Source: Acidimicrobiia bacterium (GTDB taxonomy: Bacteria; Acidobacteriota; Vicinamibacteria; Vicinamibacterales; UBA2999). Taken from it: a stretch of 64,000 nucleotides of DNA. This document shows, piece after piece, positions 24,208 to 46,306 of the stretch. Within the stretch, counting starts at the first letter, position 1, and each line of letters begins with the position of its first letter. The stretch is taken from the NCBI GenBank assembly GCA_016871255.1, contig VFZH01000002.1, positions 851-64,850 on the forward strand. The letters run 5' to 3'. Made by a program: the position numbers and the translations under genes. The notes under the pieces are model-generated. The model saw only the letters and a list, made by a program, of their open reading frames with translations. It made no database searches and was not told where the DNA came from.

Positions 24208-25398
24208 TCACTCCCGAAGCAGGGTTTCCGCCAGACTGGCGGTGGCAGCGGCGCGGCCCGCACCCGGCTCCAGCCGGTGTCCGTGGGCAGTCAACGCCCT
24301 TTCCAGGGCATCCAGCAGGGTCAGGAGTGTGTCGGAGGTTGACCCGGCGCCCATCAGCCCGACGCGCCAGATGCGTCCGGCGAGCGGCCCCAGACCACCC
24401 CCTATCTCGATCTGCCATCGATCCAGCAGCATGCGCCTGACCGACGCTTCGTCCACACCGTCCGGCACCCGCACCGCATGCAGGGTGTGCAGGCGGTCGG
24501 CTGGCGCCGGCAGCAGCGACAGGCCCATGGCTTCGAGCGCCGCGATGAACGCAACGTGATGCCGCCGATGCCTGGCCCACCGCTGCTCGAGCCCTTCCTC
24601 GTCGATCAGGATCAGCGCCTCGAGCAGCGCGTAGACGAGCGAGGCCGACAGCGTGTGGTGGTACGACCGCTCGCGCCAGTAGCGTTCGAGCAGGGCGAGG
24701 TCGAGGTAGAAGCTGCGCGCGGGCACCAGGGCCTGCCTGGACGGGCCCGAGACGGCGATCGGCGCGAGCCCCGAGGGCGAGCCGATGCACTTCTGCGTGC
24801 ACGAGTAGGCGACGTCGATCCCCCACTCCGCGAGGCGGACCTCGTGTCCGCCAAGCGAGGTGACCATGTCGGCGATCGTGCGCGCGCCGTGAGCGCGGGC
24901 GACCGAAGCCAGGTCGCGTGCCGGGTTGAGGACGCCCGTCGAGGTTTCGGCGTGGACGAAGGCGACCATGTCTGCGCGGTCCCGGACCAGCGCCGCGCGG
25001 AGGCGATCCGGGTCGCAGGCCTGGCCCCACTCGACTTCCAGGCGGCGGACCTGCCCCCCGTAGCGCTGGCACATCTGTGCCAGCCGATCGCCGAAGTAGC
25101 CCGTGACCACGACGAGCACGCGCGCGCCGTCCGCGACCGTATTCGCAACGGCGGCTTCCATACCGGACGTGCCCGTGCCGGGAGTCGCCAGCGCCAGCGA
25201 TTCACCATCGGCGCCGAAGAGCCGCTGCAGCCGCGCCCGCACCTCGTCGAGCAATGGGACGAAGGCCGGGTCCAGATGGCTCAGCACCGGGTGGCCGAGT
25301 GCGGCCATCACGCGGGGCGCCATCGGGCTGGGCCCGGGGCCCAGCAACAGCCGGTCGGGGATGCGAGGCCGGGAGGATTCGGGAGGCATCGGCATCAC
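24208..25398 (-). CDS. class-V aminotransferase (alanine-glyoxylate / serine-pyruvate aminotransferase family)
   Basis: 396 aa. Motifs are LLGPGPSPMAPRV, TPGTGTSGMEAA and the PLP-lysine motif SCTQKCIGSPSGLAPIAVS. Confidence 0.85.
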   Translation of the reverse strand: MMPMPPESSRPRIPDRLLLGPGPSPMAPRVMAALGHPVLSHLDPAFVPLLDEVRARLQRLFGADGESLALATPGTGTSGMEAAVANTVADGARVLVVVTGYFGDRLAQMCQRYGGQVRRLEVEWGQACDPDRLRAALVRDRADMVAFVHAETSTGVLNPARDLASVARAHGARTIADMVTSLGGHEVRLAEWGIDVAYSCTQKCIGSPSGLAPIAVSGPSRQALVPARSFYLDLALLERYWRERSYHHTLSASLVYALLEALILIDEEGLEQRWARHRRHHVAFIAALEAMGLSLLPAPADRLHTLHAVRVPDGVDEASVRRMLLDRWQIEIGGGLGPLAGRIWRVGLMGAGSTSDTLLTLLDALERALTAHGHRLEPGAGRAAATASLAETLLRE

Positions 25399-26291
25399 GC
25401 GCGCACGGGCAGCGCCCCGAGCGCTGCGAGCTCGACACGGAGCGCGTCGACGAGCGATGGAGGCGGCGGCAGCAGCGGCGGCCTGGGCCGCCCCCCGGTC
25501 AGGCCGATCAGGTCGATTGCCGCTTTCAGCGCCGGCACACCGCCCGTGGCGCCGACCAGACGGCCAAGGGGGGCCAGGCGCCGCTGGAGCGACCGCGCGT
25601 CCTCCAGCCGTTCACCCTGCATGAGCGACCGGAGGTGGCTGCACAGGCCGGGAACGAGAGCCGCCAGGGCGAGCACTGCGCCCGAGCAGCCGACAGCCAG
25701 CGCCGGCAGGAACGTGGAGGCCGAGCCGGCGAGCACCGCGAAATCCGGTGGCGTGCGCGCGACGAACTCCGCAAGCTGCGCGACGTCACCCCCCGACTCC
25801 TTGATGCCGGCCACGTTCGGATGGGTCGCCAGCCGCTCGACCGCATCAGGGGGCAGGTTCACACCGGTGAACATGGCGACGTTGTAGAGCAGGACCGGCA
25901 CCGGGGAGGCGTCCGCAACGGCGGTGTAGTGCCGGACGAACACCTCGGTCGTCATCTGTGGCTTGAAGAACGATGGCGTCCGCACCAGCACCGCGTCCAC
26001 GCCAGCCGCCGCCGCCCTGCGCGTCGCCTGGATCGCCTCGCGCGTCGATTCGCGTCCAGTGCCCGCCACCAGCAGGCGTCCCGAGGGAACGACGGAACGC
26101 GACACGGCGATCGCACGATCGGCTTCGTCGTCATCGAGCGCGACCGATTCGCCGTTGGACCCGAGAACGACCACACCATCGAGGGGGGTCGCCATCCAGT
26201 GCGCCAGGTTGCGGGCAAGGCCCGCTTCATCGAGTGTGTCCCGTTCCGTGAACGGAGTCGGGATGGGCGCGAACAGCCCGGACAGGCGCAC
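25395..26291 (-). CDS. DapA/DHDPS-family class I aldolase (specific substrate not assignable)
   Basis: 298 aa. Motifs are PIPTPF, VVLGSNGES, LLYNVAMFTG and the Schiff-base lysine in VAGIKESGGD. It has a 4-nt overlap with the downstream aminotransferase. Confidence 0.85.
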   Translation of the reverse strand: MRLSGLFAPIPTPFTERDTLDEAGLARNLAHWMATPLDGVVVLGSNGESVALDDDEADRAIAVSRSVVPSGRLLVAGTGRESTREAIQATRRAAAAGVDAVLVRTPSFFKPQMTTEVFVRHYTAVADASPVPVLLYNVAMFTGVNLPPDAVERLATHPNVAGIKESGGDVAQLAEFVARTPPDFAVLAGSASTFLPALAVGCSGAVLALAALVPGLCSHLRSLMQGERLEDARSLQRRLAPLGRLVGATGGVPALKAAIDLIGLTGGRPRPPLLPPPPSLVDALRVELAALGALPVRA

Positions 26292-26544
26292 CAGGCCATT
26301 CTAGCGGAGGCAGTGACAGCCCCCGGGCAGCGTCACCACCCACCACAGGCCAATCAGCTCAGCCGGACAGGTTGTTCTCCCCAAGGATGGACAGAGTTCG
26401 CCCTGAAGGCAGACTGAATTTTCGTGCTGCCGCCGTTCGAGCCATGAGTCTCGGCTATCATGGTGCGAGCGTGTCGGTGTCGGGTGGGGAAGTGTGTACG
26501 TGTGCGGTGCGGGCGTCAGGCTCACTGGCGAGAGGGCAGAGCGA

Positions 26545-28233
26545 ATGACTCGATTCCCCGCAGCGGGTGTGAACGCGTTCGGTCGTCTACTGGTCGTGGT
26601 GCTGGTGGGGCTGACGGCGTCAGCGGCCGTGGCGGAAGCCCAGTCCGCCTTCCCGCGCCGGGCGCTGCTGTCACCGACGCCGCAGCAGATGGTGGCGGAC
26701 GACGACTTCAGCGCCCCCTCTGACGACGCCACGAGGCTGGTGCTGACGGGCACCCGCCGGCAGATCAACGACCTTGCTTCCAGGCACGGTCTGCGCATCA
26801 GAAAGCGGCTGGCCTGGGGCGCGGCCGTGGACGTCCCACCGGGCATGCTTCGGGAAGTCGTGGATGACGGGGAGCTCGACCAGGCCGCGATCGACCTTCG
26901 GGTTGCCGGCTCGATGGACGTGTCCGGCATCTCGACGGGCGCCGATCAGGCGTGGTCGAACCAGTGGCGCATCAGCGGCGCCTTCAAGCCCTCGCCTGGC
27001 TTTCCGGTCAACGGCACCGGTGTCACCATCGCGATCATCGACTCCGGGATCGATCCGCACCCGGCCCTCAGCGGTCGCGTACTCGCGAGCGTGAACTTCA
27101 CCGGTGCTGCCGACGCCACGGACGACCACGGGCACGGCACGCACGTCGCCGGCATCGTGGCGGGCGCGAACATCAGCCAGAACCCGCCCGCGTCGGGCGT
27201 GGCACCGGGCGCGCTGCTGGTCAACCTGAAGGTGCTCGGGGCGGACGGTTCCGGCTACACCAGCGACGTGATCGAGGCCATCGACTGGGCGATCGCGAAC
27301 AGGACGGCGTACAACATCCGCATCATCAACCTGTCGCTGGGGCACCCGTCCATCGAATCGTGGGCCGCCGACCCGCTGTGCCAGGCGGTCGAACGCGCGT
27401 ACCACGCCGGCATCTTCGTCGTGGCGGCGGCGGGCAACCGCGGCAAGCACCCGGACACGGGCGAGAAGATCTACGGCCTGATCGACTCGCCGGGCGTATC
27501 GCCCTATGCGTTCACCGTGGGTGCGCTGAACACGTTCGCCACCGCGTTCCGGTCCGACGACGGGGTGACGACCTACAGCTCCCGCGGCCCGACGTGGATC
27601 GACCACCTCCCGAAGCCGGACATCGGCGCACCCGGCAACCGGATCCGGAGCCTGCTCGGGACGGATACGACGCTGGCGCAGGCGTATCCCCAGTTCGTGA
27701 TCGGGACCGGTCCGGACGCGGTGCTCGAGTTAAGCGGCAGCAGCATGGCGGCGGGGGTGGTGAGCGGCGCGGCGGCGCTGCTGCTGCAGGGCAAGCCGGC
27801 CACGACACCGCTCGGTCTGCGCGTGGCGCTCCAGTACTCGTCCAGTCTCGTGCCGGGAAGCACGGCGCTCGAGACAGGGGTCGGCAGCCTGAACGTCGTC
27901 AGCGCCTTGAAGGGGATCTTCTCGACCAAGGCCAAGTCGTTCCCGGCCCTGATCGCGGGCGAGCTGATCGCCAACCAACAGGGGGTCTTCGCTGCGGCCG
28001 TCGTGAACGCACCCGGCGCCGTTGGTGCAGACGGTATCGCGTGGTCAGACGGAATAGCCTGGTCTGATGGTATCGCGTGGGCTGATGGCATCGCGTGGGC
28101 TGACGGCATCGCGTGGGCTGACGGCATCGCGTGGTCGGATGGCATCTCATGGTCCGACGGCATCGCTTGGTCAGATGGCATCGCGTGGTCCGACGGCATC
28201 TCGTGGTCGGATGGCATCACCTTACCGGACTGA
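26545..28233 (+). CDS. secreted subtilisin-family (S8) serine protease with a C-terminal hexapeptide-repeat tail
   Basis: Internal ATG of ORF 26494..28233, with a signal peptide ending AVAEAQSA. The triad is Asp AIIDSGID, His HGTHVAGIVAG, Ser GSSMAAGVVSGAAALL. The tail is (DGI[AS]W[SA])x10. Confidence 0.88.
   Translation: MTRFPAAGVNAFGRLLVVVLVGLTASAAVAEAQSAFPRRALLSPTPQQMVADDDFSAPSDDATRLVLTGTRRQINDLASRHGLRIRKRLAWGAAVDVPPGMLREVVDDGELDQAAIDLRVAGSMDVSGISTGADQAWSNQWRISGAFKPSPGFPVNGTGVTIAIIDSGIDPHPALSGRVLASVNFTGAADATDDHGHGTHVAGIVAGANISQNPPASGVAPGALLVNLKVLGADGSGYTSDVIEAIDWAIANRTAYNIRIINLSLGHPSIESWAADPLCQAVERAYHAGIFVVAAAGNRGKHPDTGEKIYGLIDSPGVSPYAFTVGALNTFATAFRSDDGVTTYSSRGPTWIDHLPKPDIGAPGNRIRSLLGTDTTLAQAYPQFVIGTGPDAVLELSGSSMAAGVVSGAAALLLQGKPATTPLGLRVALQYSSSLVPGSTALETGVGSLNVVSALKGIFSTKAKSFPALIAGELIANQQGVFAAAVVNAPGAVGADGIAWSDGIAWSDGIAWADGIAWADGIAWADGIAWSDGISWSDGIAWSDGIAWSDGISWSDGITLPD
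28030..28221 (+). repeat. 18-bp in-frame tandem repeat, 10 full units plus a partial one (encodes DGIAWS-type hexapeptides)
   Basis: Units start every 18 nt from 28030 to 28192. They differ mostly at synonymous third positions (gac/gat, ggt/gga/ggc, atc/ata), plus A/S swaps. Confidence 0.95.
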
Positions 28234-28294
28234 GATCTCGTGACTTGGCACTAGTCAAGTCTCGCGCCCGTAAACGAGCAATTGCTGCAACCGG

Positions 28295-30232
28295 ATGTCT
28301 TGGCTGCCCAGCGAACTGCCACGAGGCGCCAGAATCTACATCGGCCTGACTGTCGCAGGTGGCCTACTCCTAGTCGGGCGCGCCTCCGTTTCGCTTCTTG
28401 TTGCAGCGCCACCGCGCGAGTGGCTCATTTTCGCGGCGCTGGCGCTCCTAAGCGGCGCATTCACCGTTAAGGTCCCGGGCGTTCCCCTTCGACTCTCAGT
28501 CGCCGAAGCGTTTGTATTCGCTACCGTACTCCTGTACGGAATCGAGGCCGCGATCCTCGTGGTCTCTCTTGACGCGATCGCGTCATCCCTCCGGCATCGA
28601 AGAACCGCAAAGTCTCTCTATCGAGCTCCGTTCACCGTCGCTTCTGTGGCGATAGGAATCTGGCTAGCTGGTTTGCTGTACGAAGCTCTACTTGGACAGG
28701 GCCTAACCGCTGCGGATGTAGCGCTAGACGACCTAATGCTTCCGTTGTTCGCGCTCTCAACTGCGTACTTCATCATCAACAGTGGACTAGTTGCTGTCGG
28801 TATGGGGCTCGAAAGACGAGTTTCCGCCCTGGTGCTGTGGCGAAGTAACTTCTTGTGGCTGGGCCTAAATTACCTTGGGGGCGCCTCGTTCGCGGCGCTG
28901 ATCGTCGTCTACAGACAGCAGTTTGACCTCGCGATGATCGCGGTTGTCGTGCCGCTCATCGTCATCACGTACCTCACGTTCCGAACATCGGTCGATCGGC
29001 TGGAAGACGCCAACCGGCACGTCAGTCAGCTGAACGAGCTGTACCTGTCGACCATCGAGACGCTGGCCATGGCCGTGGACGCCAAGGACCAGATCACCCA
29101 CGGCCACATCCGGCGCGTGCAGGTGTACGCCACCGAGCTCGGGCGGCGGATGGGCGTGACCGATCACAGCCAGCTTCGCGCCATCGAGGCCGCCGCCCTG
29201 CTCCACGACATGGGCAAGCTGGCGATCCCCGAAACGATCCTGAACAAGCCCGGGAAGCTGTCCGACGCCGAGTACGACCGGATCAAGGAGCACGCGAGCA
29301 TCGGCGCCGACCTGCTGTCGGTCATCCGCTTTCCCTACCCCGTCGTGCCGATCGTCCGGCACCACCACGAGTTCTGGAACGGCAAGGGCTACCCGAGCGG
29401 CATCTCGGGCACCGACATCCCGCTCGGCGCCCGGATCCTGTCCGTGGTCGACTGCTTCGACGCGCTGACCTCGGACCGCCCGTACCGCCCCCGCCTGAGC
29501 CGTGACGAGGCGTTCGCGATCCTGCGCGAGCGCCGCGGATCGATGTACGACCCTCTGGTGGTCGACCGCTTCGTCGGGGCCTTCGATGACATCCACCCGC
29601 TGGCGGTCGCCGCGGGCGAACAGGCCCGGAGCCTCATTCCCGGCGTGCAGGCTGACCAGTGGGCTGTCGCTGCCGGGGCCCTGCCGCTGCGGCAGATCCG
29701 CGCGAGCGCGGAAGACAGCGCCCTGAGCTTCGAGGTTCGTCGTGCCCTGCTGGGCGCCTCCTCGCCCCAGGAGGCCTTCCTGCACGTGGCGAGGTACATC
29801 CGCCAGCAGACGCCAGCCACGCTCTGCGCTCTCTTCCGCCCTGAACCTGGGAGCGACCTGCTGACGTGCGTGCAGGCGTCAGGAGAAGGAGCGGAGCTGC
29901 TGCTCGGGTTTTCGATACGAACGGGCGAGCGGATCACCGGCTGGGCAGCCGCGCACCGGCAGACGATCTGCAACTCCGACCCCACCCTGGATTTCGGAAA
30001 CATCGTTAAGTCCTTCCGCTGCCAACCCAAGAGTACCCTCGCGGCACCTATACTTGACACCGATTCAACACTAGGCGTAGTAACCGCATACGCACTGACG
30101 CAAGAGGCATTCTCAAACGACCATCGCCATACGATCGATGAGATCGTGGTTCATCTAGGGCGGTCGCTGAGAGAGAGTGAGAAGGAGGAGAAGCGCCTCC
30201 TTGCAGTGGAAAACAAGAAAGACTTGGCCTAG
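28295..30232 (+). CDS. membrane-anchored HD-GYP domain protein (putative c-di-GMP phosphodiesterase) with a C-terminal GAF-like domain
   Basis: 645 aa, with about 6-7 N-terminal TM helices. HD-GYP motifs are HGHIRRV, AALLHDMGKLAIPE, HHHEFWNGKGYPSG and DCFDALTSDRPYR. The C-terminal roughly 190 aa looks GAF-like. Confidence 0.85.
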   Translation: MSWLPSELPRGARIYIGLTVAGGLLLVGRASVSLLVAAPPREWLIFAALALLSGAFTVKVPGVPLRLSVAEAFVFATVLLYGIEAAILVVSLDAIASSLRHRRTAKSLYRAPFTVASVAIGIWLAGLLYEALLGQGLTAADVALDDLMLPLFALSTAYFIINSGLVAVGMGLERRVSALVLWRSNFLWLGLNYLGGASFAALIVVYRQQFDLAMIAVVVPLIVITYLTFRTSVDRLEDANRHVSQLNELYLSTIETLAMAVDAKDQITHGHIRRVQVYATELGRRMGVTDHSQLRAIEAAALLHDMGKLAIPETILNKPGKLSDAEYDRIKEHASIGADLLSVIRFPYPVVPIVRHHHEFWNGKGYPSGISGTDIPLGARILSVVDCFDALTSDRPYRPRLSRDEAFAILRERRGSMYDPLVVDRFVGAFDDIHPLAVAAGEQARSLIPGVQADQWAVAAGALPLRQIRASAEDSALSFEVRRALLGASSPQEAFLHVARYIRQQTPATLCALFRPEPGSDLLTCVQASGEGAELLLGFSIRTGERITGWAAAHRQTICNSDPTLDFGNIVKSFRCQPKSTLAAPILDTDSTLGVVTAYALTQEAFSNDHRHTIDEIVVHLGRSLRESEKEEKRLLAVENKKDLA

Positions 30233-30282
30233 AAGGATCAACCACAGAGACGGCCTCTGGGGTTCCATCCAGGAGTAGTCAG

Positions 30283-33021
30283 ATGGGGCTATCGTACGAC
30301 GCCGCGCTCAACCTGTTCCGCTCTGGCGAGGTCTGCGAACTGCTTCGTCAGAGTGAGTCAAGTCCCCAAGACATCGCGAAAATCCCACGACCGGAACATC
30401 GCCTGCTCCTGGCTCGTTGCCTGTTCTACGTTGGCCGCGTGGAAGATGCTGCTTCTGTTGCGACAGCAACTCACTGCTCCAACCCGGCGACAGAGTCTCG
30501 AGCCGAAGTGACCCTCGGGCTCGTTGCCAAGAGACGCGGTGACTTTGACCTGGCACTGAAGCACCTCCAACACGCGGTCCACTTGGCGCGCTCTTCCCAA
30601 GACATACAGCAAGAAGGCTGGGCTCGCCTCCATCTGTTTAGACTGCTACTCGAAGTCGAGCGGTTCGAGACACTCGCTCCGATGCTTAGAGAGATCAAAC
30701 AGTGCGCTGTCCAAGCGGCAGATCCCCACCTTAACGTCTACCTTCACGACGCAGTCGCCGTCATGGAGGGACAAGTTGGAAGCTTGGAGCAAGCACGACG
30801 GCACGTTGCCATGGGGAGGTCGGTACTCGAGCGGTACCCAAACGCCCTGCTGGGAGAAATGATCGAGGTGACTGCTTCGTGTTTGGCCAGTCTCGAGTTG
30901 GACTTCCAATCAGCCAAAATTCACGAGCGGAAAGCCAGAGTCTTCGGAGCCGTCACGAGCCATGTGTTCTGTTCTTTGGTCCTTGAGGTCAACGAGGCAC
31001 ACCGATATCTCGTTAGTGGCAAGCTCATGAGTGCACGCGAAGCACTCCTCGCGATGCAGCGCTCTCCGGCCGCGTCGGTACGTGCAGCGGCAATTGACGG
31101 TTTGGCACGACTGTACGTTGCGACAGGACACGACGACCTCTGTGCCGCCGTCCTTGAGACAGCCGAACAGGCAATCCGCCACCCGAAGACAGGTGCCATG
31201 TACTCGCTGAGGTGGCTTGGACTCTCCCATGCGAAGCTCACCCTGAGACAGGGAAGACTCGACACCCTCGACGCGCATCTCGACCACGAGCTGCAGCGGG
31301 CGGAGGCGCTGCACGACGCTCCTCTGCTTGCGGCGCTCCGGCTGCTCAGAGCCGAGGGCGCCTCGATGCGGGGGCACGGTGAACAGGTGGGGCGGGAACT
31401 GCTCCTGGCCGCCGACCTGGGCGTCACGACGAACCCGGAGCTGCAGGGGCACTACCACCTCACCTGCAGCCGCGTGCTGGAGCGCACGGGCAGTGCGCTC
31501 GCTCCGCTGTTCCGGGCGCGCGCCGAGCGCGTCTGGCGCGAGCGGCGCAACCTGCTCGCGCTGATCGAAGCCGGAGCCTGGGACGGCCCCCCGATCGAGA
31601 TCGCCGACTACGACCAGGACCCGCGCTTCGCTGGCCCCCCGGCCCGGACCCCGGTGTCCGTGCCCGTCCAGACAGCGCCGGCCGCCGTGCTGAGCGCGGT
31701 CGCCAATGTCTTCGACCTCACCGCCATGCCGTCCGAACTCGGGGCCGAACTGCAGCAGATCATCGCCACCCTCGGCTGCGCGCCGTTCGCCCGCGTCCAG
31801 ACCGGCCGCGCCCCTGCGGCCGCGCCGGACGAGTTCACCGTGCCGCTCGGTGAGGACGGCGGCCGCGCGCTCGCGCTGACATACCGCGCAGCGCCCGATC
31901 CCGGCACCACCGTGCTGGTGAGCGCCCTCGCGCGGATCGCACGTGCCGCCCTGGCCGTGGAGCGCATGCGGCGCGACGAGAACGAACGCGCAGCGGTCTG
32001 GCCGGCCGCGGCGGCAGCCGATGGCGATCCCGTGTACGTGGACGAACAGATGGTCAGCCTGGTCGCGGCCGCCCGCCGGGTGGCGGGCGTCAACGTCTCG
32101 GTGCTCGTCACCGGCGAGACCGGCACGGGAAAGGAAGTCCTCGCGCGCCTGATCCACTCGGCATCGCCGCGATCGCGCGGCACCTTCCTGCCCTTCAACT
32201 GCGCCGCCTGCCCCCGCGACATCATCGACGCGCAGCTGTTCGGCCATCGCCGCGGCGCCTTCACGGGCGCCATGGAGAGCGCGCCCGGCGTGATCCGTGC
32301 CGCGGCTGGCGGGACGCTCTTCCTGGACGAGATCGGCGAGGCGCCGCTCGACATCCAGCCGAAACTCCTCCGCTTCCTCGAGTCGGGCGAAGTGCATCCC
32401 CTCGGCGAAGCCCACCCGGTGAAAGCCGACGTGCGCGTCATCGCGGCCACCAACGTCGACCTCGACGCGCTGGTATCCGCCGGCCGCTTCCGCGAAGACC
32501 TCTTCTACCGCCTCAACATCGTCCGGCTGCACCTGCCGCCCCTCCGGGAGCGGCGCGTCGAGATCGCCACGCTCGCGGAGCGGTACCTGAGCACCTACGC
32601 ACGGGAGTTCCACAAGGGTGACCTGCGCCTCGCGGAGGAGACGATGGAGTACCTCCTCCTGTACCGGTGGCCGGGCAACGTCCGCCAGCTCGCCAACGAG
32701 ATGCGCCGGCTGGCCGCCATGGCCGAATCCGGCGCCGTCCTCATGCCCGAGCACCTGTCACCCGACATCGCGCGCTCGCGCCGCACGGTGCCGCCGTCGG
32801 AGAGGCCGCTGAGCGCCAACGAGGTGGTGGTCAGGACCGATCAGCCGCTGCCCGCCGCTGTCGAACACCTCGAGCGCGCCATGGTCACGCGCGCGCTCCA
32901 GGCCTCCGACGGCCGCGTGGAAGATGCCGCCCGGCGTCTGGGCCTGTCGCGCAAGGGCCTGTATCTGAAACGTGTGCGGTTCGGGCTCGAGATCGGCGAG
33001 CAGGAAGCCCGCTCCGCCTGA
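30283..33021 (+). CDS. sigma-54-dependent transcriptional activator (bEBP) with a roughly 560-aa TPR/MalT-like N-terminal domain and no receiver domain
   Basis: 912 aa. It has Walker A VTGETGTGKE, the GAFTGA loop (HRRGAFTGA), Walker B GTLFLDEIG, RWPGNVRQL and a C-terminal HTH AARRLGLSRKGLYLKRVRFGL. An AGGAG RBS sits at 30271. Confidence 0.88.
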   Translation: MGLSYDAALNLFRSGEVCELLRQSESSPQDIAKIPRPEHRLLLARCLFYVGRVEDAASVATATHCSNPATESRAEVTLGLVAKRRGDFDLALKHLQHAVHLARSSQDIQQEGWARLHLFRLLLEVERFETLAPMLREIKQCAVQAADPHLNVYLHDAVAVMEGQVGSLEQARRHVAMGRSVLERYPNALLGEMIEVTASCLASLELDFQSAKIHERKARVFGAVTSHVFCSLVLEVNEAHRYLVSGKLMSAREALLAMQRSPAASVRAAAIDGLARLYVATGHDDLCAAVLETAEQAIRHPKTGAMYSLRWLGLSHAKLTLRQGRLDTLDAHLDHELQRAEALHDAPLLAALRLLRAEGASMRGHGEQVGRELLLAADLGVTTNPELQGHYHLTCSRVLERTGSALAPLFRARAERVWRERRNLLALIEAGAWDGPPIEIADYDQDPRFAGPPARTPVSVPVQTAPAAVLSAVANVFDLTAMPSELGAELQQIIATLGCAPFARVQTGRAPAAAPDEFTVPLGEDGGRALALTYRAAPDPGTTVLVSALARIARAALAVERMRRDENERAAVWPAAAAADGDPVYVDEQMVSLVAAARRVAGVNVSVLVTGETGTGKEVLARLIHSASPRSRGTFLPFNCAACPRDIIDAQLFGHRRGAFTGAMESAPGVIRAAAGGTLFLDEIGEAPLDIQPKLLRFLESGEVHPLGEAHPVKADVRVIAATNVDLDALVSAGRFREDLFYRLNIVRLHLPPLRERRVEIATLAERYLSTYAREFHKGDLRLAEETMEYLLLYRWPGNVRQLANEMRRLAAMAESGAVLMPEHLSPDIARSRRTVPPSERPLSANEVVVRTDQPLPAAVEHLERAMVTRALQASDGRVEDAARRLGLSRKGLYLKRVRFGLEIGEQEARSA

Positions 33022-33070
33022 CGGCCCGGCAAGCCGTCCCGTCGCCCCCGCTCGCTCCACCCGCCCTGAT

Positions 33071-33544
33071 CTAGTCTGCCTTCCCGCCCTGTCGGCCCCG
33101 CCGCGCACGCCCTTCGAGCAGGCGGCGGACCCGGCGCAGGTCATCCTTCAGGCGGGAGGCGCGCACCCACGGCACCAGCGGGGCCAGCACGTGCCACACA
33201 TCGAAGGTCTGCTCCACCACGAGAAGGGACCGCTGTGCGCTGATTGGCCGCACCTCACGGACCTGGCGCTGCCACCAGGGGTGATGGCCGGGCGTTTCGA
33301 GCACCACCCGTCTCGGCGGCTCCAGGGCCGTCACGGTGAACGGCGTCATCGAGTGGAAGACGCGCAGCGTCGTGCGGCTCTCGCGGCAATGCCGGCCCAC
33401 GGCGAGCGGGCCGGACACCTCCACGGCGTAGACACCCTCGCGCCAGCGCGGGTCGTTCGCGCTGTCGGCCACGAGGGTAAACACCTCGGCAGCCGCGCAC
33501 GCCACGTGCACCGAGTGCCGGATGGTCGGCTGTTCACGCTCCAT
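33071..33544 (-). CDS. SRPBCC (START/polyketide-cyclase-like) family protein
   Basis: 157 aa. IRHSVHVACAAAEVFTLVADSANDPRWREGV is typical of the SRPBCC N-terminus. It is convergent with the bEBP gene. Confidence 0.6.
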   Translation of the reverse strand: MEREQPTIRHSVHVACAAAEVFTLVADSANDPRWREGVYAVEVSGPLAVGRHCRESRTTLRVFHSMTPFTVTALEPPRRVVLETPGHHPWWQRQVREVRPISAQRSLLVVEQTFDVWHVLAPLVPWVRASRLKDDLRRVRRLLEGRARRGRQGGKAD

Positions 33545-33919
33545 TCAGACGGATCCCGTCGTCCGGGACCCCGACGGGCCGCCCGTCCTGGCTGGTCCCC
33601 GCGGTCCCCCGAGCCCCCCAATCGTAGTCGGGAACGAGCACGCTGCAACGGCCCGGCCCGGGGCCGCCTGAACGGGCGGCCCGGCCGCTCCCCCGCAGCC
33701 CCCCACGGCTCGAGGCGCCGCCGGAACGGCCCAGCTTGTCTTCGGTTGACGTCGACGAACGCGGGTGGCAGCCTCTGCGGTTGGCACGCGGCGGCTCCGC
33801 CCCCGTGCCGGACCTGCCGCCGCACGGGCACCCTGTTCGGGCGCGCACGGCATGCCGTCCCGGACTGCCGAGCAGGTGCGCCGACCTCCGGAACATGGGC
33901 TTCTTCGCCCAGGACCAAC

Positions 33920-33971
33920 TCGACTTCCGCGTCGCCAAGGGGGCGGGGTGAGCTGTCGGCTCGCCCCGCCC
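33920..33971 (+). pseudogene. possible relic of a TonB-dependent-receptor 3' end plus its terminator hairpin
   Basis: 33920-33940 (tcgacttccgcgtcgccaagg, reading ..LDFRVAK) matches 37048-37068 of the downstream receptor gene at 20 of 21 nt. The hairpin GGGCGGGGTGAGC-tgtcg-GCTCGCCCCGCCC (33941-33971) begins with the same 13 nt as the terminator at 37290. Confidence 0.3.
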
Positions 33972-34064
33972 GTGCTGCGACCAGTCATGCACCAAGGCTC
34001 CCGTGCTCCTGCGAAGCCACCCCAGGGGCAGCCAGCCTCGACAAACGCCTTTCCAGGCTGGTCT

Positions 34065-34093
34065 TTGACACCGCTGCGCTCGCGATCTAGGCT
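34065..34093 (+). promoter_or_regulatory. candidate sigma-70-type promoter (TTGACA - 17 nt - TAGGCT) upstream of the Oar-like receptor
   Basis: The -35 is perfect, but the -10 matches TATAAT at only 3 of 6 positions. This site competes with the sigma-54-like site 20 nt downstream. Confidence 0.35.
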
Positions 34094-34111
34094 TCCCATC
34101 ACACGCATCGT

Positions 34112-34127
34112 TGGATATATGACTGCA
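34112..34127 (+). promoter_or_regulatory. sigma-54-like -24/-12 element (TGGatatatgacTGCA)
   Basis: GG (34113-14) and GC (34125-26) are separated by exactly 10 nt. The element sits in a striking AT-rich patch 73 nt upstream of ATG 34200 and downstream of a bEBP gene. The -24 lacks the CAC of TGGCAC. Confidence 0.3.
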
Positions 34128-34199
34128 GCTCAGGCGTACCAATCGGTACTCAGGCGTGATGTCGCATTGTCGCATCCGTCAATCGCGAGGAGGGGAACT

Positions 34200-37100
34200 A
34201 TGGCCGCCGCACTGAGGTTGAGGATGAGGATGAAACGAACGTTGTGTCTTGCGCTGCTGGTGACGGCCGGGATGCTGGTGGCGTCAGGAACAGCGCGGGC
34301 CCAGACCGGTGCGATCGCCGGCACGGTCGCCGATGCGACGGGCGCTGTGCTGCCCGGCGTGACCGTCACGGCGACCAGTCCTGTCGAGGGTGCCCCCCGG
34401 ACGGTGGTGACAGGGAGCCAGGGTCTCTACACCATCACGGCTCTCCGCGCTCCCGGGGTCTACGCGGTGGAGTTCACCCTCCCCGGGTTCAGCACCGTGC
34501 GGCGCGAAGGCGTCGAGCTGACGACCGGATTCACCGCGAACATCAACGTTCAGATGGTGGTGGGCGGCGTCGAGGAGACGGTCACCGTCACCGGGGCGAC
34601 TCCGACCGTTGACATCCAGAACGTCGCAGCCCAGAACAGGCTGAGCCGAGGCGTGCTGGACTCGCTTCCGAATGCCCAGAACATCAGTTCCTTTGCGGCG
34701 CTGACCTTGGGCATGTCCATCGTCGGCGCCAGCGGCATCGGGGGACAGGATGTCGGCGGCACCGGTGGCGAGATGGGGATCGCGTCGATCAACAACAATC
34801 GCGGCGAAGACCAGAAGATGACCCAGGATGGGATGAACGTCAACAACGCGATGGGGACCAACGGTGGGATCTTCCGGGCGGGCATGCAGTTCAACATGGA
34901 AGGCGTGGCGGAGGTCACGATCGGTCACACCGGGATGAGCGCCGAGACGGAGACCGCTGGGGTGAACATGAACTACATCCCCAAGGAGGGCGGGAACCGG
35001 CTCTCCGGGTCGGCCCGAGCCACATTCACCAACGAAGACTTCCAGTCGGACAACTTGGGTGACCTGGCTCAACGCAGGGGTACCCTCGGGTCGATGAAGC
35101 AGGTGTATGACTACGGCGCCTCCTTTGGTGGTCGGATCGTCCGCGACAAACTCTGGTTCTTCACGGCGCATCGATGGTGGGGTGACGAGGTCTACTCGCC
35201 GAACTCCTTTTTCAACGCCATTCAGGGGCAGAAGGCGGCCAATGGCGTGCCGCTCTACGCGCCGGACAGAAGCAAGCGCGGCTTCATCCAGAACTACAAC
35301 CAGGAGAACTCGGGCCGCATCACCTGGCAGGCGTCGAGCAAGGACAAGCTCGCCTACTTTGGCAACCGCAACGACAACTGCGTCTGTTTCCGAGGTGTCC
35401 AGGCGATCCTCACTCCAGAGGCGAGCTTCAACAACTTCCTGCCGCAGAATCACCTGTCCCAGATCACCTACACCCGCGCCCACTCGAACAACGTTCTGAT
35501 CGAGGCGGGGGCGTCGATCCTGATCAACCCGTTCGGGTTCGGCCGGGAAAACACGAATGTCGATTTCGACGACGTGGCGATCTTGGCGATTGCGGGAGGC
35601 GCGACAACCGCGGGTGCGCCGCTCCTGATCTACAACGCGAAGGGGAGCGACTTCTTGCCATACAACGACGGCACCGGCCCGGGCGCTGGCCTCAGTGAAG
35701 CCGGCCAGCAGAACGCACGCGGGGCGCTTTCGTATGTCACCGGGTCCCACACCCTGAAGTTCGGGTTCAGCTGGGCGCACGGCCTCGTCGAGGCCAATGG
35801 TGAGAGCAACCACATTCCCGGGTTCGGCCCGGGACAGGTGACGACGATCGGCGGGGTGCCGTTCTCGATCACCGCGTACGCCCAGCCGTTCTACAACCGG
35901 AGCGACTTCCAGAACATCGGTATCTACGCGCAGGACCAGTGGACACTCGACCGCTTCACGTTCAATGCGGGCGTTCGCTTCGACATGTTCGACGGGTGGA
36001 CCCCGGCCGCTGCGGTCATGCCGAGCCGTTTCACACCCGGGTTCTCGTTCAACAAGGTCTCGGACGCACCAACCTACCGGGATGTCTCCCCGCGTCTGGG
36101 CCTGGCCTGGAACGTGAGGGGTGACGGCAAGACGGCGTTCAAGGCCTCGGCTGGCCGGTACGTCGCAGCCCAGGGGACCGGCAACGCACAGGTGTTCAAC
36201 CCCGCGCGAGCCATTTCGACGAGCACCACGCGCACTTGGGCTGACGCCAATTCCGACTTCGTCGTCCAGGGTAATGGAAGCAACCCGCTGGCCAACGGCG
36301 AACTGGGACCAAGCACGAATCCGTCGTTTGGCAGCCCCGTGATCATCCGATCCTTCAGCGACGACTTCGCCACCAAGAATCGCCAATACACCTGGCAGTA
36401 CTCGGTGTCGGTCGACCAGGAGCTGCGGGACAACGTCAGGCTGACCGTCGCCTACAACCGGACCGCGCACTACAATCAGAGCGTCACCGACAACCTGCTG
36501 GTCACCCCGGCCGACTACCAGAACTTCTGCGTCACGCCGACCAGCGGGCCGGCACAAGGTCGGCGGCTCTGCGAGTACTACGACCTGACCCCGGCGGCCA
36601 ACAGTCGGTTCGCGACCGGGTTCCTCCAGACTCGCCTCGAGGACACGTTCGGGGATCGGACCCAGATCTACAACGGGCTTTCCTTCGAGACGCAGGCGCG
36701 GTTCGACAACGGCGCGCTGGTCCAGGGAGGCATCGTCTTTGGCAAGACGGTCGACAACAACTGCTTCACCGTCGACTCTCCCGAGCAGCAGAACTTCCTG
36801 TGCGAGATCGTCTCACCCTGGTGGGACGTGGGTGGCCAGGTCAAGTTCGCCGGTCTCTACCCGCTGCCTTACGGCATCGAAGTCAGTGCCGTCTACCAGA
36901 ACCTCCCGGGGATCGAGATCCGGGCCCAGCAGCGGACGTTCACGACCGACGACGCCGGTCGCACCGGCCGACCGCTGACCCGGGCCACAAGCGTGCTGCT
37001 CGACACCATCCCGCGAAACAGTGCCTTCGAGGATCGGCTCAACCAGATCGACTTCCGCGTCGCGAAGGTGCTCAGGTTCGCTGACACCCGCACGCTGCTT

Positions 37101-37238
37101 ACGTTCGACCTCTACAACGCGTTGAACGCCAACAACGTTCGGGCCCGGGTGGATGAGCTTGGTGGCTCGTACGGCAACATCATCGCGTTCATGGGGGCTC
37201 GTACGGTCAAGGTCGGCGGTCAGTTCAGCTGGAACTAG
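34200..37238 (+). CDS. Oar-like TonB-dependent receptor (N-terminal carboxypeptidase-regulatory-like domain + plug + barrel), paralog 1
   Basis: ATG 34200 follows a GAGGAGGGG RBS, inside track ORF 33765..37238. The signal peptide is followed by AIAGTVADATGAVLPGVTVTATSP..GLYTI..L.PG.Y.V.F.L.GF. It is collinear with 40489..43497 over its full length. Confidence 0.8.
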   Translation: MAAALRLRMRMKRTLCLALLVTAGMLVASGTARAQTGAIAGTVADATGAVLPGVTVTATSPVEGAPRTVVTGSQGLYTITALRAPGVYAVEFTLPGFSTVRREGVELTTGFTANINVQMVVGGVEETVTVTGATPTVDIQNVAAQNRLSRGVLDSLPNAQNISSFAALTLGMSIVGASGIGGQDVGGTGGEMGIASINNNRGEDQKMTQDGMNVNNAMGTNGGIFRAGMQFNMEGVAEVTIGHTGMSAETETAGVNMNYIPKEGGNRLSGSARATFTNEDFQSDNLGDLAQRRGTLGSMKQVYDYGASFGGRIVRDKLWFFTAHRWWGDEVYSPNSFFNAIQGQKAANGVPLYAPDRSKRGFIQNYNQENSGRITWQASSKDKLAYFGNRNDNCVCFRGVQAILTPEASFNNFLPQNHLSQITYTRAHSNNVLIEAGASILINPFGFGRENTNVDFDDVAILAIAGGATTAGAPLLIYNAKGSDFLPYNDGTGPGAGLSEAGQQNARGALSYVTGSHTLKFGFSWAHGLVEANGESNHIPGFGPGQVTTIGGVPFSITAYAQPFYNRSDFQNIGIYAQDQWTLDRFTFNAGVRFDMFDGWTPAAAVMPSRFTPGFSFNKVSDAPTYRDVSPRLGLAWNVRGDGKTAFKASAGRYVAAQGTGNAQVFNPARAISTSTTRTWADANSDFVVQGNGSNPLANGELGPSTNPSFGSPVIIRSFSDDFATKNRQYTWQYSVSVDQELRDNVRLTVAYNRTAHYNQSVTDNLLVTPADYQNFCVTPTSGPAQGRRLCEYYDLTPAANSRFATGFLQTRLEDTFGDRTQIYNGLSFETQARFDNGALVQGGIVFGKTVDNNCFTVDSPEQQNFLCEIVSPWWDVGGQVKFAGLYPLPYGIEVSAVYQNLPGIEIRAQQRTFTTDDAGRTGRPLTRATSVLLDTIPRNSAFEDRLNQIDFRVAKVLRFADTRTLLTFDLYNALNANNVRARVDELGGSYGNIIAFMGARTVKVGGQFSWN

Positions 37239-40488: not shown

Positions 40489-43400
40489 CTAGAACGTGTA
40501 CTGCCCGTTGAACTTGATCGTCCGTGCGCCGAGGATGCGCGTCGGCGTGCCCCAGGCCCCGCCGAACGTGTTGTTGCGCGCCAGCACGGCCGCGCTGTTG
40601 AAGATGTTGTAGAGGTCCAGCGACAACCGCAGCCGCCCGACCCCGGTGTGCAGCAGCTTGGCCACCCGGAAATCGAGCTGGTTGATCCGATCCTCACGCA
40701 GCGTCAGGGGTTCGATCACCGGGATCGACACCGTCGCCGTGCAGGGCCCGCTCGCGTTGGCACAAGCCGCCGGGTTCCGGCCCAGCGCCTGGAAGATCTG
40801 CGCCGAGGTGAACGGCACGTTGGCGAGAATCTGCGCGCCCGCCAGGTTCTGGTACACACCAGACAGCTCGATGCCGTACGGCATCGGAAAGGACCCGGAG
40901 ACCTTCAGCTGGCCGCTGTTGCTGTTCCACCACGGCTCGCTCGTCTTGCAGAAGTGGAGCGCGTCCGGCGAGTCGACCACGACGCAGTTGTCCGTCACCT
41001 CGCTGCCGAGCGCCACGCCGCCCTGGAGCAGCGCGCCGTTCGGGAAGCGGCCGTGCATCTCGAGATCGACGCCGTTGAAGTACTGCTTCCGGTCGCCGAA
41101 CGTCTTCTCGTTGCGCACCAGCGTCCGGACCTGCCCGAACCTGGCCCGGCTGATCATCGACTGGTTGCACAGCTGGTAGCCGCCGCCGCCGGGCAGCCGC
41201 GAGTCGGTCGGCGCGTTGATGCAGAACGTGTCGTAGTCCGACGGTGTCACGAGCGTGTTGTCGCTCACCGTCTGGTCGAAATGCTGGATGCGGTAGTAGC
41301 TGATGCTCGCGCCGAGATTGTCGCGGAGCTCGCGCGAGAACGACCCCGAGTACTGCCACGAATACTCGCGGTTCTCGGTCAGGTAGTCCGGGTCGAAGAA
41401 CGTGGTGACCCGGGGCGAGCCGAACGCGGCGTCCGACAGCGGCCCCAGCTCGTTGGCCTGCGGCAGGAAGTCGCCGTTGGTGTCGCTCCAGGTCCGGATG
41501 GCCGACGTCACGATGGCCAGCGCGGGATTGGTCGGCTGCACCGTGCCGGAACCGGCCGCGGCGACGTAGCGACCTGCCGACACCTTCACGGCCGTCTTGC
41601 CGTCGCCGTTCAGATCCCATGCGAGACCCAGACGCGGCGACACGTCACGCCACGTCGGCGTGTCCTCGATGCGTGACACGCTGAAGCCAGGCACGAACGC
41701 GCCGTCCGGCGACGACTGATCCGGGCTCCAGCCATCGAACATGTCGAACCGCGCGCCCAGATTCAGCGTGAAGCGGTTGAGCGACCACTGGTCCTGTCCG
41801 TAGATGCCGACGTTCCGGAAATCCGCGCGGTTGAACTTCGGGTGCGCGAAGATCTGGATCGAGTTCGGCACGCCGTTGAAGAGCCGCAGGTCAACCGGGC
41901 CAAACCCCGCGAGCACGTTGTTCGAGCCGTTCTGCTCGACCAGGCCATGGGCCGCGGAGAAGCCGACCTTGAAGGCGTGCGATCCGGTGACGTACGAGAC
42001 CGACGCGCGACCGTTCTGCTGCCCGGCCTCGCTGTCGTCACACACGGGCTTCGGCCCCTGGCAGTCCGTGTACGGCAGCGCCCCGCTCGATCGGGCGCCC
42101 CAGACCCGGCCGAGCGCGAGGTCCGTGTACCGCAGGTCGTCGTAGTCCACGCCCTGGCGGCCCGTGCCCGGTTCCTGGCAGCGGTCCTCGTGGCAGAACG
42201 CGAACGGGTTCTTGAGGTACGTGAACCCGCCCTCGATCAGCAGCCGGCTCGTCTGCACCCGGTTCCACGTGATCTGCGACAGGTGGTTCGACGGCAGGTG
42301 GTTGTGCGACGCGGCCTCCGGCGCCACGTTCGCGCCGATGCCCAGGTAGCAGACGCACTGGTCGCCACGGTTACCGTAGTAGCCCAGCTTGTCCTTCTGC
42401 GTCATCTGCCAGTTGATCCGGCCCGTGTTGTCCTGGTTGTAGTTCTCCAGGTACCCCGGGCGGCTGGTGTCCGGCGTGTAGAACCGTGTGCCCTGCGTCG
42501 CGTTGAAAAAGCTCCCCGGCTGGTCCACCGAGTCGCCCCACCAGCGGTGGGCGGTGAAGAACCACAGCCGGTCGCGCTTGATCGGCCCGCCGACCGCGCC
42601 GCCGTAGTCGTAGATCTTCCTGATACTGCCCGGGGTCACGGCGCCGCGAGCGCGAAGGGCGTCGGTGATGTTTTCCGACTGGAGGTCGCCGCTGGTGTAG
42701 GCGGCGCGGCCGGAGCCCGAGAAGTTGTTGCCGCCGTCCTTCGGGACGAAGTTCACCTGCACGCCGGCGGTCTCCGTCTCCGCCGTCATGCCGCTGAAGG
42801 CCATCGTGGCCTCCTGCATCGCCTCCATGTTGTAGTGCTGGCCCGCGTGGAACGCGCCGCCGTTGGTCCCCATGGAGTTGTTCGTGTTCATCCCGTCCAT
42901 GGCGAACTTCTGGTCGGTGCCGCGGCTGCCGTGCACGGTCGTCGTGCCCTGCTCGCCCGCCGAGCCGGCCACGTCCTGCGTCGAGGCGCCGCCCATCACC
43001 ACGCCCAGTGTCAGCGCCGAGAAGCTCGCCAGCGTCTGCGCGTTCGGCAGCGCGTCGAGCACCTCGCGCGTCATCACGTTCTGCGCCCGGACGTTCTGCA
43101 CGTCCACCGTCGGGCTGGCGCCGGACACCGTGACGGTTTCCTCGAGCGAGCCGACCTTGAGCTGCGCGTTGACCGGGGCGGTGAACCCCTGCGTCAACGT
43201 GATCCCCTCACGCACGACCACGCTGAACCCGGTCAGCGTGAAGGTGACGGTGTAGGTGCCGGGACGCAGCAACGTCACGTTGTAGCGCCCCGTCCCGTCG
43301 GTCACGACGGTGCGGACGCCCTCGATGAGCGCCGGGCTGCTGACTTCGACGGTGACGCCGGGAAGGACGCCCCCGGTGTCGTCCGTGACGGTGCCCGAAA

Positions 43401-43497
43401 TGCCGCTGTCCTGGGCCAGGACCCGGCCGGGACTGACGAGCAGCGTCGCCAGGGCCAGGCAGCCCAGGCTCAGCCACATCCGTGCTGTGAATCTCAT
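40489..43497 (-). CDS. Oar-like TonB-dependent receptor, paralog 2
   Basis: ATG 43497 follows a GGAGGGGG RBS, inside ORF 40489..43539. Features are a signal peptide, GISGTVTDDTGGVLPGVTVEVSSP, RLWFFTAHRWWGD (also in paralog 1) and the terminal GQYTF. Confidence 0.8.
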   Translation of the reverse strand: MRFTARMWLSLGCLALATLLVSPGRVLAQDSGISGTVTDDTGGVLPGVTVEVSSPALIEGVRTVVTDGTGRYNVTLLRPGTYTVTFTLTGFSVVVREGITLTQGFTAPVNAQLKVGSLEETVTVSGASPTVDVQNVRAQNVMTREVLDALPNAQTLASFSALTLGVVMGGASTQDVAGSAGEQGTTTVHGSRGTDQKFAMDGMNTNNSMGTNGGAFHAGQHYNMEAMQEATMAFSGMTAETETAGVQVNFVPKDGGNNFSGSGRAAYTSGDLQSENITDALRARGAVTPGSIRKIYDYGGAVGGPIKRDRLWFFTAHRWWGDSVDQPGSFFNATQGTRFYTPDTSRPGYLENYNQDNTGRINWQMTQKDKLGYYGNRGDQCVCYLGIGANVAPEAASHNHLPSNHLSQITWNRVQTSRLLIEGGFTYLKNPFAFCHEDRCQEPGTGRQGVDYDDLRYTDLALGRVWGARSSGALPYTDCQGPKPVCDDSEAGQQNGRASVSYVTGSHAFKVGFSAAHGLVEQNGSNNVLAGFGPVDLRLFNGVPNSIQIFAHPKFNRADFRNVGIYGQDQWSLNRFTLNLGARFDMFDGWSPDQSSPDGAFVPGFSVSRIEDTPTWRDVSPRLGLAWDLNGDGKTAVKVSAGRYVAAAGSGTVQPTNPALAIVTSAIRTWSDTNGDFLPQANELGPLSDAAFGSPRVTTFFDPDYLTENREYSWQYSGSFSRELRDNLGASISYYRIQHFDQTVSDNTLVTPSDYDTFCINAPTDSRLPGGGGYQLCNQSMISRARFGQVRTLVRNEKTFGDRKQYFNGVDLEMHGRFPNGALLQGGVALGSEVTDNCVVVDSPDALHFCKTSEPWWNSNSGQLKVSGSFPMPYGIELSGVYQNLAGAQILANVPFTSAQIFQALGRNPAACANASGPCTATVSIPVIEPLTLREDRINQLDFRVAKLLHTGVGRLRLSLDLYNIFNSAAVLARNNTFGGAWGTPTRILGARTIKFNGQYTF

Positions 43498-43546
43498 ACC
43501 CCCTCCAGTTGCAAGGGCCCGCCAATCGGGCCACGCCAAGCTCTTC

Positions 43547-46023: not shown

Positions 46024-46306
46024 CTCTCCTTGTGAACACTCGACGGAGCCGACGGGGTCCACGGGGCGGCGTTCACGGCGGGCGCCACGCGGGCCACGAC
46101 TCCGGGCGAGCGGAGTCGGAACGCCCCATGATGCGGGAAGCCGCCGCACAGATCAACCGCCGAAAGGGTCACCGGGGGGACCGGGCAGGCAGGACGGGCC
46201 GCGGGCCACGGCGGCACGCCGGGGTCTGGGCCCGGAGCAAGGCACCCGGCGACCCTGGCGAAGCGCTCGGAGCCCCGCCAGAGTCGCCCGGGCCGAATGC
46301 GGGCGG

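Follow-up and report, generated by a model that had tools for sequence, protein, structure and literature searches.

A TPR-sensor sigma-54 activator paired with a membrane HD-GYP protein in Vicinamibacteria, and an apparently reduced copy of its operon beside an Oar-type receptor gene

The switch of a sigma-54 activator is normally a receiver, GAF, PAS or V4R domain. Among the described proteins close to the one considered here are FleQ, VpsR and FlrA, with which it shares an NtrC-type AAA+ domain containing the GAFTGA loop, a C-terminal helix-turn-helix (HTH) and a tie to cyclic di-GMP (c-di-GMP) metabolism. We analyzed a 64-kb stretch of contig VFZH01000002.1 (hereafter the window), in which a gene for a membrane HD-GYP phosphodiesterase is followed by a gene for a 912-aa sigma-54 activator and, about 1.1 kb further on, by an Oar-type outer-membrane receptor gene preceded by a candidate sigma-54 promoter. 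A sequence-only reading of the window had suggested a c-di-GMP-linked sigma-54 circuit that controls the neighbouring uptake and enzyme genes. Comparison with related loci makes us lean, if only slightly, towards another explanation: that the activator belongs to a reduced copy of an autoregulated operon of S8 protease, HD-GYP and activator genes, and that the Oar gene has a separate sigma-54 promoter and lies next to the activator gene by coincidence.

The locus differs from each of the systems that it resembles. Where FleQ, VpsR and FlrA have a REC-like N-terminus, the activator has a 430-aa tetratricopeptide-repeat (TPR) solenoid and an alpha/beta domain; moreover, its operon also encodes the phosphodiesterase, and the linker arginine context of FleQ is not evident. 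Another sigma-54 activator is BerB. In Burkholderia cenocepacia, RpfR-BerB likewise pairs a c-di-GMP enzyme with a transcriptional regulator (PMC9684580), but RpfR is a soluble PAS-GGDEF-EAL protein, whereas the window protein is a membrane HD-GYP-GAF protein, a putative partner of the activator. The superhelical TPR fold is shared with domain III of MalT and with STAND TPR sensors (1hz4 was among the Foldseek matches, and relatives of the activator match Pfam TPR_MalT). However, the activator has neither a STAND NTPase nor a LuxR HTH, and its sole NTPase is the sigma-54 AAA+ domain, which is C-terminal to the TPR region. The RRNPP regulators of Firmicutes and phages (Rap, NprR and PlcR) also have a TPR sensor, and relatives of the locus are RRNPP-like in having a tiny open reading frame (ORF) and the gene of an extracellular S8 protease alongside, with an Opp-type importer encoded close by. 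In contrast to RRNPP systems, the output here is a sigma-54 AAA+ domain with a Fis-type HTH, the phylum is diderm and the tiny peptide lacks an export signal; in addition, the fold similarity is generic (E 1e-3), and the window itself has neither the tiny ORF nor the importer. Finally, the relatives show an NtrC-type enhancer architecture, with two palindromes ~95 bp apart upstream of a GG-N10-GC element and an IHF-like site in some cases, but they combine a new palindrome (GGCCAA-N4-TTGGCC) with CTGC as the -12 element, and the window lacks this architecture altogether.

Three genes of the window form the conserved trio:

26545-28233, + strand: secreted subtilase (Peptidase_S8, Pfam E 1.9e-47) with a signal peptide, first gene of the trio
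28295-30232, + strand: polytopic membrane HD-GYP phosphodiesterase with a C-terminal GAF domain (HD_5, GAF_2, sub-threshold MASE9)
30283-33021, + strand: receiver-less sigma-54 activator, 912 aa (Pfam, AlphaFold2, Foldseek, PDB sequence search)

Synteny was analyzed in the neighbourhoods of eight close homologs and by tblastn of the window proteins onto 24 loci (the family loci are designated L001-L023). In 21 of the 23 related loci that were informative, nearly all of them with Acidobacteriota or Vicinamibacteria labels, the HD-GYP gene was found upstream of the activator gene, directly so except in L018, where ~3 kb separates the two genes. An S8 protease gene precedes the HD-GYP gene in every related locus with enough sequence. 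On the other side, the gene 3' of the activator gene differs from locus to locus and is never an Oar or SRPBCC gene (~24 related loci). By this gene order, HD-GYP/GAF and the TPR-type activator are a real conserved gene pair, and the earlier treatment of the two as linked is borne out.

Pfam assigned Sigma54_activat (residues 587-749, E 4e-62), AAA_lid_14 and HTH_8 (860-897) to the activator and detected no receiver domain in it. The protein consists of a TPR solenoid (1-432), a small alpha/beta domain (462-572) for which Pfam gives no match, the AAA+ domain with GAFTGA (587-835) and the Fis-type HTH (856-900). Motifs of the AAA+ domain include GETGTGKE, LFLDEIGE and REDLFYRL; the GAFTGA loop is intact, reads GHRRGAFTGAMES and is the sole GAFTGA within the window. 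Searches against PDB sequences matched this domain to Aquifex NtrC1 (E 4e-64) and to the AAA+ domain of FleQ (E ~1e-59). Because Foldseek with the full-length model gave AAA+ matches only, the sensor domain was modelled separately. The AlphaFold2 model of residues 1-585 (pLDDT 84, pTM 0.78) has ~12 TPR-like helix pairs in residues 1-432, and its Foldseek matches, with E values from 1e-5 to 1e-3, are TPR solenoids of a generic kind (APC5, LGN, MalT domain III and Rap-pheromone complexes), with the highest target-normalised TM-scores, 0.67-0.73, given by the Rap-pheromone complexes. The features first described from the letters of the sequence, a 912-aa activator starting 50 nt after the end of the HD-GYP gene, with intact GAFTGA and HTH and a TPR/MalT-like sensor instead of a receiver, all held up, with the sensor now divided into the ~430-aa solenoid, which includes MalT domain III among its matches, and the alpha/beta domain.

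This sensor domain was detected in 476 proteins (phmmer, 1.84 billion representatives), and the full-length members are all 860-950 aa long, mostly ~900 aa. The HTH is invariant across the family, as is a family-specific R-x-A-x-W-P linker located immediately N-terminal of the AAA+ domain. Literature searches found no characterised TPR-sensor sigma-54 activator and no study of sigma-54 regulation in Vicinamibacteria. TPR-sensor sigma-54 activators are a sizeable, uncharacterised family of fixed architecture.

The partner protein (645 aa) matched HD_5 (E 2.6e-40) and HD in Pfam, together with GAF_2/GAF at residues 489-623 (GAF_2 E 1.2e-8). Its N-terminal ~230 aa are hydrophobic and contain a sub-threshold match to MASE9. 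The motifs HGH, LHDMGK, HHHEFWNGKGYP, VVDCFD and DRPYR were all found, and these domains and motifs agree with the original description of a polytopic HD-GYP protein with a C-terminal GAF. The metal-binding residues (H/HD/H/HH/D) and the GYP motif do not vary among 19 orthologs, which makes an active enzyme probable. A functional link of c-di-GMP turnover with the activator is likely, and reasonably drawn, because the gene pairing is conserved and the catalytic motifs are invariant. The c-di-GMP-linked circuit proposed for the window is plausible as far as the gene pair (21 of 23 loci) and its catalytic motifs are concerned; its other part, control of the neighbouring genes, is unsupported.

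We identified a full control region in about 12-14 relatives, in which palindromes and a TGGCAC-N5-CCTGCC element are followed by a small HTH_17 gene before the S8 gene. The matrix scan for sigma-54 sites detected the conserved TGGCAC-N5-CCTGCC(A) in 11-13 relatives, and GG and GC were invariant in a 13-locus alignment. This element stands 20-40 nt 5' of a Shine-Dalgarno (SD) sequence and the HTH_17 ORF. The encoded HTH_17 protein is conserved and 70-100 aa long (Pfam E 5.9e-9), its gene precedes the S8 gene, and its conserved stretch reads LGRSVSIDQAA.LLGVSRRTVYNRIRDGRLQTIRTLGGSQRVL (also written LGRSVSIDQAA..LGVSRRTVYNRIRDGRL). In 12 loci, the palindrome GGCCAA-N4-TTGGCC (nine exact, three with one T-for-C change) precedes the -24 box by 190-220 nt, and a second, degenerate copy precedes it by ~105-117 nt. 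Tentatively, an IHF-like WATCAR-N4-TTR lies between the palindromes and the promoter in some relatives. The loci with the full control region are L009 (5684-5893), L008, L011-L015, L017, L019 and L021-L023. These 12 loci also have genes for an oligopeptide-type SBP_bac_5 protein and a permease, which are transcribed away from the control region, towards genes for a DHDPS-family enzyme and an aminotransferase. The fuller operon order is two palindromes, TGGCAC-N5-CCTGCC, HTH_17, S8, a tiny ORF, HD-GYP/GAF and activator. We infer that the palindromes are the predicted enhancer of the activator and that the operon would be positively autoregulated.

Two further features of the relatives concern HTH proteins. 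The recognition helix of HTH_17 resembles the Fis-type HTH of the activator. In L005, the HTH gene is present a second time, just 3' of the activator gene, and this copy has a promoter of its own (7196-7211, minus strand).

In the window and in L001, the DHDPS gene is directly divergent from the S8 gene, and scans and comparison with the relatives showed that the permease, SBP5, palindromes, promoter and HTH gene are all missing. No sigma-54 promoter and no family enhancer were found upstream of the S8, HD-GYP or activator gene in the window, and the lone GG-N10-GC in 26292-26545 is the weak CGGCTATCATGGTGCG. One deletion of ~4.3 kb apparently accounts for the loss of the whole block from permease to HTH gene. 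Judged by gene content and order, the Vicinamibacteria (Acidobacteriota) have a conserved signalling operon of which 26545-33021 is a reduced copy, and by the same comparison the module of the relatives is more complete. As the block that contains the promoter is missing between the DHDPS and S8 genes, the window trio would have to be transcribed from another promoter. The relaxed palindrome core has one occurrence in the 64-kb window, within an ORF; because of this and of the invariant HTH, the targets of the activator are predicted to lie outside the window if the HTH keeps its specificity. One site resembling the family promoter, CGGCATGATCCCTGCC at 61248, was rejected, being inside coding sequence.

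The mechanism that we propose for the complete operon follows from this organization. The activator would bind the two palindromes via its Fis-type HTH and drive its own operon through sigma-54, which would result in positive autoregulation, while the TPR solenoid and the alpha/beta domain would keep the AAA+ ring inactive as long as no ligand or partner is bound. The HD-GYP enzyme, expressed from the same operon, would lower c-di-GMP, as output or feedback; if the operon is autoregulated, the HD-GYP enzyme may be viewed as an output that acts alongside the secreted protease.

The Oar gene has to be considered separately. It and the elements in front of it are:

34032-34061, no strand: inverted repeat CCAGCCT-N16-AGGCTGG, which precedes the candidate -24 box by 50-80 nt and bears no relation to the family enhancer
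34065-34093, + strand: sigma-70-like TTGACA-17-TAGGCT, seen in the sequence
34112-34127, + strand: candidate sigma-54 -24/-12 element of the Oar-like gene, TGGATATATGACTGCA, 6.3 bits, position shared with orthologs
34227-37238, + strand: Oar-type TonB-dependent-like outer-membrane receptor (CarboxypepD_reg and OMP_b-brl_4)

All three upstream elements are where the sequence-only reading had placed them. The 34112 site has the GG-N10-GC spacing, but taken alone it is at chance level: it scores 6.3 of 19.75 bits, 66 window sites are as good or better versus 78.6 in shuffles, TGG-N9-TGC has 54 occurrences in the window, and the chance of one site of this grade in 350 nt is ~0.16. What supports a sigma-54 promoter is the presence of strong sites in three of four orthologs (identities are those of the proteins to the Oar protein of the window):

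L026, 80% identity: best upstream site GGGAACGGCGCTTGCA, 11.6 bits
L025, 77% identity: best upstream site AGGAACAGCGATTGCA, 12.7 bits
L027, 73% identity: best upstream site CGGCATGTCTTTTGCT, 14.5 bits, at a different distance from the start
L028, 69% identity: no upstream sigma-54-like site

Sites of at least 11.5 bits occur at 0.031 per kb per strand (1 Mb of these sequences), so that strong sites in three of four orthologs correspond to P ~5e-6. In addition, a divergent Oar paralog in L027 has AGGCATGTCTTTTGCG (12.3 bits). The sites of the window, L025 and L026 end 99, 92 and 99 nt, respectively, before the homologous start codon (ATG 34227 in the window) and have GGA-N8-TGCAGCT in common, with GCT following all three. 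The site is thus conserved at an equivalent position in two relatives, but not in L027, where the distance is different, or in L028, where there is none. Because three of four orthologs have a strong site, two of them at the equivalent position, the Oar promoter is probably real, and we consider it rather likely that 34112-34127 works as a sigma-54 promoter. A metagenome scan for further Oar orthologs yielded relatives of at most 51% identity only, which were unusable.

The features upstream of this promoter do not point to the neighbouring activator. GGCCAA-N4-TTGGCC is absent from the Oar upstream region in the window, and no activator or HD-GYP gene was found near any of the four Oar orthologs. 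In L025 (5779-5796) and L026 (1017-1034), a conserved palindrome, ATCCAAC-NN-GTTGGAT, is located ~95 nt upstream of the -24 box; its CCAA-N4-TTGG core is as in the family enhancer, but the outer bases differ, and the window is without a counterpart. The inverted repeat CCAGCCT-N16-AGGCTGG, present at the distance where activator sites usually lie, could be a putative binding site, but the window contains 7-bp inverted repeats at a density of 6.1 per kb, and this one is not the family enhancer. Judging from these comparisons, the position of the activator gene near the Oar gene is probably a coincidence, and the Oar gene is probably served by a different activator.

YCAA-N4-TTGR was also considered as a shared enhancer in the Oar-ortholog loci and was rejected. 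The occurrences in L026 (4494, 4508), L027 and L028 are GGATCC-centred hairpins, some near transposase genes; those in L025 (5782) and L026 (1020) are conserved upstream, yet their outer bases differ from those of the family enhancer, and no link is claimed.

Other explanations must be weighed against a reduced autoregulated operon beside an independently controlled Oar gene. If the adjacent activator bound upstream of 34112 and activated the Oar gene, and perhaps the operon near position 46.7 kb, with the HD-GYP enzyme setting the controlling c-di-GMP level, this would fit with the activator gene ending 1.1 kb from a probably real GG-N10-GC promoter, with an inverted repeat at a plausible enhancer distance and with the tendency of sigma-54 activators to adjoin their targets. 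We give little credence to this arrangement, since Oar is never beside the activator in ~24 loci and the activator never beside the four Oar orthologs, the family palindrome is absent near Oar in spite of the invariant HTH, and an opposite-strand SRPBCC gene intervenes. A second sigma-54 site had been proposed before the DUF6152-like/CxxCH operon (46770-46785, minus strand), but this sequence, CGGGTAAAGTGTTGCC, scores only -0.1 bits and overlaps an ORF start. The claim that the activator controls the neighbouring uptake and enzyme genes found no support in the comparison, as no locus has Oar 3' of the activator and no family enhancer occurs near Oar. It is somewhat easier to imagine, though still doubtful, that 34112 is a chance match and that the Oar gene is transcribed from the sigma-70-like TTGACA-17-TAGGCT. 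The score of 6.3 bits is no better than that of 66 other window sites, the -35 hexamer TTGACA is perfect and stands at 17-nt spacing, and ortholog L028 lacks a sigma-54-like site. On the other hand, TAGGCT matches only 3 of 6 positions of the -10 hexamer, below the threshold of the consensus scanner, and chance would have to explain both the 11.6-14.5-bit sites of three orthologs (P ~5e-6) and the 99-, 92- and 99-nt distances from the start with TGCAGCT in common.

The role of the HD-GYP/GAF protein may also be the reverse of that proposed above. As an input, it would lower the local c-di-GMP sensed by the activator, on the pattern of FleQ and VpsR, or would contact the activator directly as a trigger enzyme or anti-activator, on that of RpfR-BerB or NifL-NifA. 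Such an input would fit an autoregulated operon as well, and several features favour it, namely the tight gene pairing (21 of 23 loci), the intact catalytic motifs, the GAF domain of the HD-GYP protein and, in the activator, the conserved alpha/beta domain and the invariant R-x-A-x-W-P linker. There are precedents both for c-di-GMP-binding activators (PMC10723142) and for phosphodiesterase-activator contact (PMC9684580). FleQ coordinates c-di-GMP by R138, R144, R185, E330 and R334 (PMC10723142), of which R185 and R334 are general ATPase residues. The activator has the post-Walker-A arginine (KEVLARLIH), also a general ATPase residue, and its R-x-A-x-W-P linker is not FleQ-like. In the activator sequence, a c-di-GMP-binding domain was not detected and a FleQ-type linker motif was not evident; the arginines shared with FleQ are the general ATPase residues, and the alpha/beta domain is without a Pfam match. 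By analogy with these proteins, c-di-GMP might control the activator directly, and we hold the input role to be a tentative possibility.

Several points count against the reduced-operon explanation itself. The bit scores depend on a sigma-54 matrix (maximum 19.75 bits) that was rebuilt from the published consensus, and the family promoter has CTGC, not TTGC, at -12. No RpoN box was found in the sequences covered, which are the window and the loci retrieved. L004 and L023 are without an HD-GYP gene upstream of the activator gene, and the evidence for autoregulation is the co-location of palindromes, promoter and activator gene only. MAFFT alignments of the Oar intergenic regions were unstable, so that positional equivalence was judged from the distance and the shared 7-mer. 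A short spacer and adjacency are, besides, classic hints of local regulation, which leave a small probability that this activator controls the Oar gene.

The S8 protease and the region following it suggest an additional reading of the operon. The S8 ORF opens with GTG 26494, and the likely start is ATG 26545, followed by the signal peptide. Two features are found at its 3' end:

28030-28218, + strand: 18-nt-unit tandem array encoding ~11 hexapeptide repeats, (A/S)DGI(A/S)W, at the S8 C-terminus (Tandem Repeats Finder)
28243-28257, + strand: tiny-ORF remnant, GTG ACT TGG CAC TAG, with no SD sequence and only T..TGG kept

Tandem Repeats Finder gave a period of 18, 10.5 copies and a score of 217 for the array, and Pfam gives no match for the hexapeptide repeat. 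All S8 orthologs have Trp-containing repeat tails, such as GIVWSD, TIVWGN, AVLWGD and NANNILWG. In 17 related loci, an ORF of 8-20 codons preceded by a strong SD sequence, most commonly encoding MRRLIIWGE, is located between the S8 and HD-GYP genes (for example, L009 7990-8020). Its consensus is M-R-x-L-I-I/V-W-G-E/D, third codon positions vary synonymously, and a conserved CCGATA is present 3' of it; the peptide resembles one unit of the S8 repeat. The interval singled out by the sequence-only reading begins with TTGGCAC because the remnant of this ORF lies there. This TTGGCAC (28245) was rejected as a -24 box: no GC follows at the distance required, and the letters are what is left of the tiny ORF.

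Because a TPR sensor, a tiny ORF and an Opp-like importer co-occur in the relatives, a peptide-sensing logic is suggested. In such an RRNPP-like circuit, Trp-containing hexapeptides that the S8 protease would cut from its own repeat tail and/or MRRLIIWGE would be the cue, which would be imported by the Opp-like system and bound by the TPR domain, turning the operon on. We rate this circuit as improbable because the peptide has no export signal and the similarity to the Rap fold is generic. Under the same reading, and at equally long odds, HD-GYP would be induced too and would lower c-di-GMP, and the window copy would be decayed, 'deaf' or rewired.

The gene map of the region was derived from the ORF listing, analysis of G+C content at third codon positions (GC3) and Pfam scans. 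Besides the genes listed above, it contains:

24208-25398, - strand: class-V aminotransferase
25395-26291, - strand: DHDPS-family enzyme
33071-33544, - strand: SRPBCC/polyketide-cyclase-like protein (Polyketide_cyc2 E 8e-7)

The SRPBCC gene, which had gone unmentioned before, sits between the activator and Oar genes and is absent from the related loci (tblastn). The Oar start at ATG 34227 was picked by homology, and ATG 34200 is an alternative. An Rfam scan of 26000-34400 gave no matches, nor did a scan of 33000-34300 for consensus sigma-70 promoters and terminators. Two more Oar-like/CarboxypepD_reg genes are located downstream (40489-43539 and 43771-46149, both on the minus strand); in the 350 nt upstream of each, no sigma-54-like site scores more than 4.4 bits. 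The best sigma-54-like site of the window, TGGTACGTGGCTTGCC (5462-5477, + strand, 14.5 bits), is intergenic, and a 365-aa ORF (5550-6647) starts 73 nt downstream of it; this ORF, which diverges from dprA, gave no match in Pfam. The second best, TGGAACAGACGCTGCT (20974-20989, minus strand, 13.8 bits), is at the 5' end of the longest HNH endonuclease ORF (20457-21002) and may precede the true start of that gene.

Taxonomic assignment of the source also requires comment. Among 18 genome matches to the sensor domain, one has the label 'Bifidobacteriaceae' and the other 17 those of Acidobacteriota, Acidobacteria or Vicinamibacteria, for which reason the NCBI label of the source metagenome-assembled genome, 'Acidimicrobiia bacterium', is probably a binning error. 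One search matched the activator exactly to an NCBI protein from a metagenome-assembled genome with this label, and a separate look-up of its exact sequence gave no record. The window encodes three Oar-type outer-membrane receptors. The point is of consequence, as sigma-54 and outer membranes are generally absent from Actinobacteria.

Our comparison carries a caution, in that adjacency within one genome hinted at a regulatory link that the relatives do not support. It also yields a concrete, testable family enhancer (GGCCAA-N4-TTGGCC) and promoter, and indicates that Oar-type receptor genes of the group are probably sigma-54-dependent. In the activator family (~900 aa, 476 cluster representatives), a large TPR solenoid takes the place of the usual sensors. 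Vicinamibacteria are abundant, poorly studied soil bacteria, and the near-obligate pairing of this activator with a membrane HD-GYP protein and a secreted protease points to an unstudied switch in them, which would couple c-di-GMP, proteolysis and peptide uptake to a cue from outside the cell or from the envelope.

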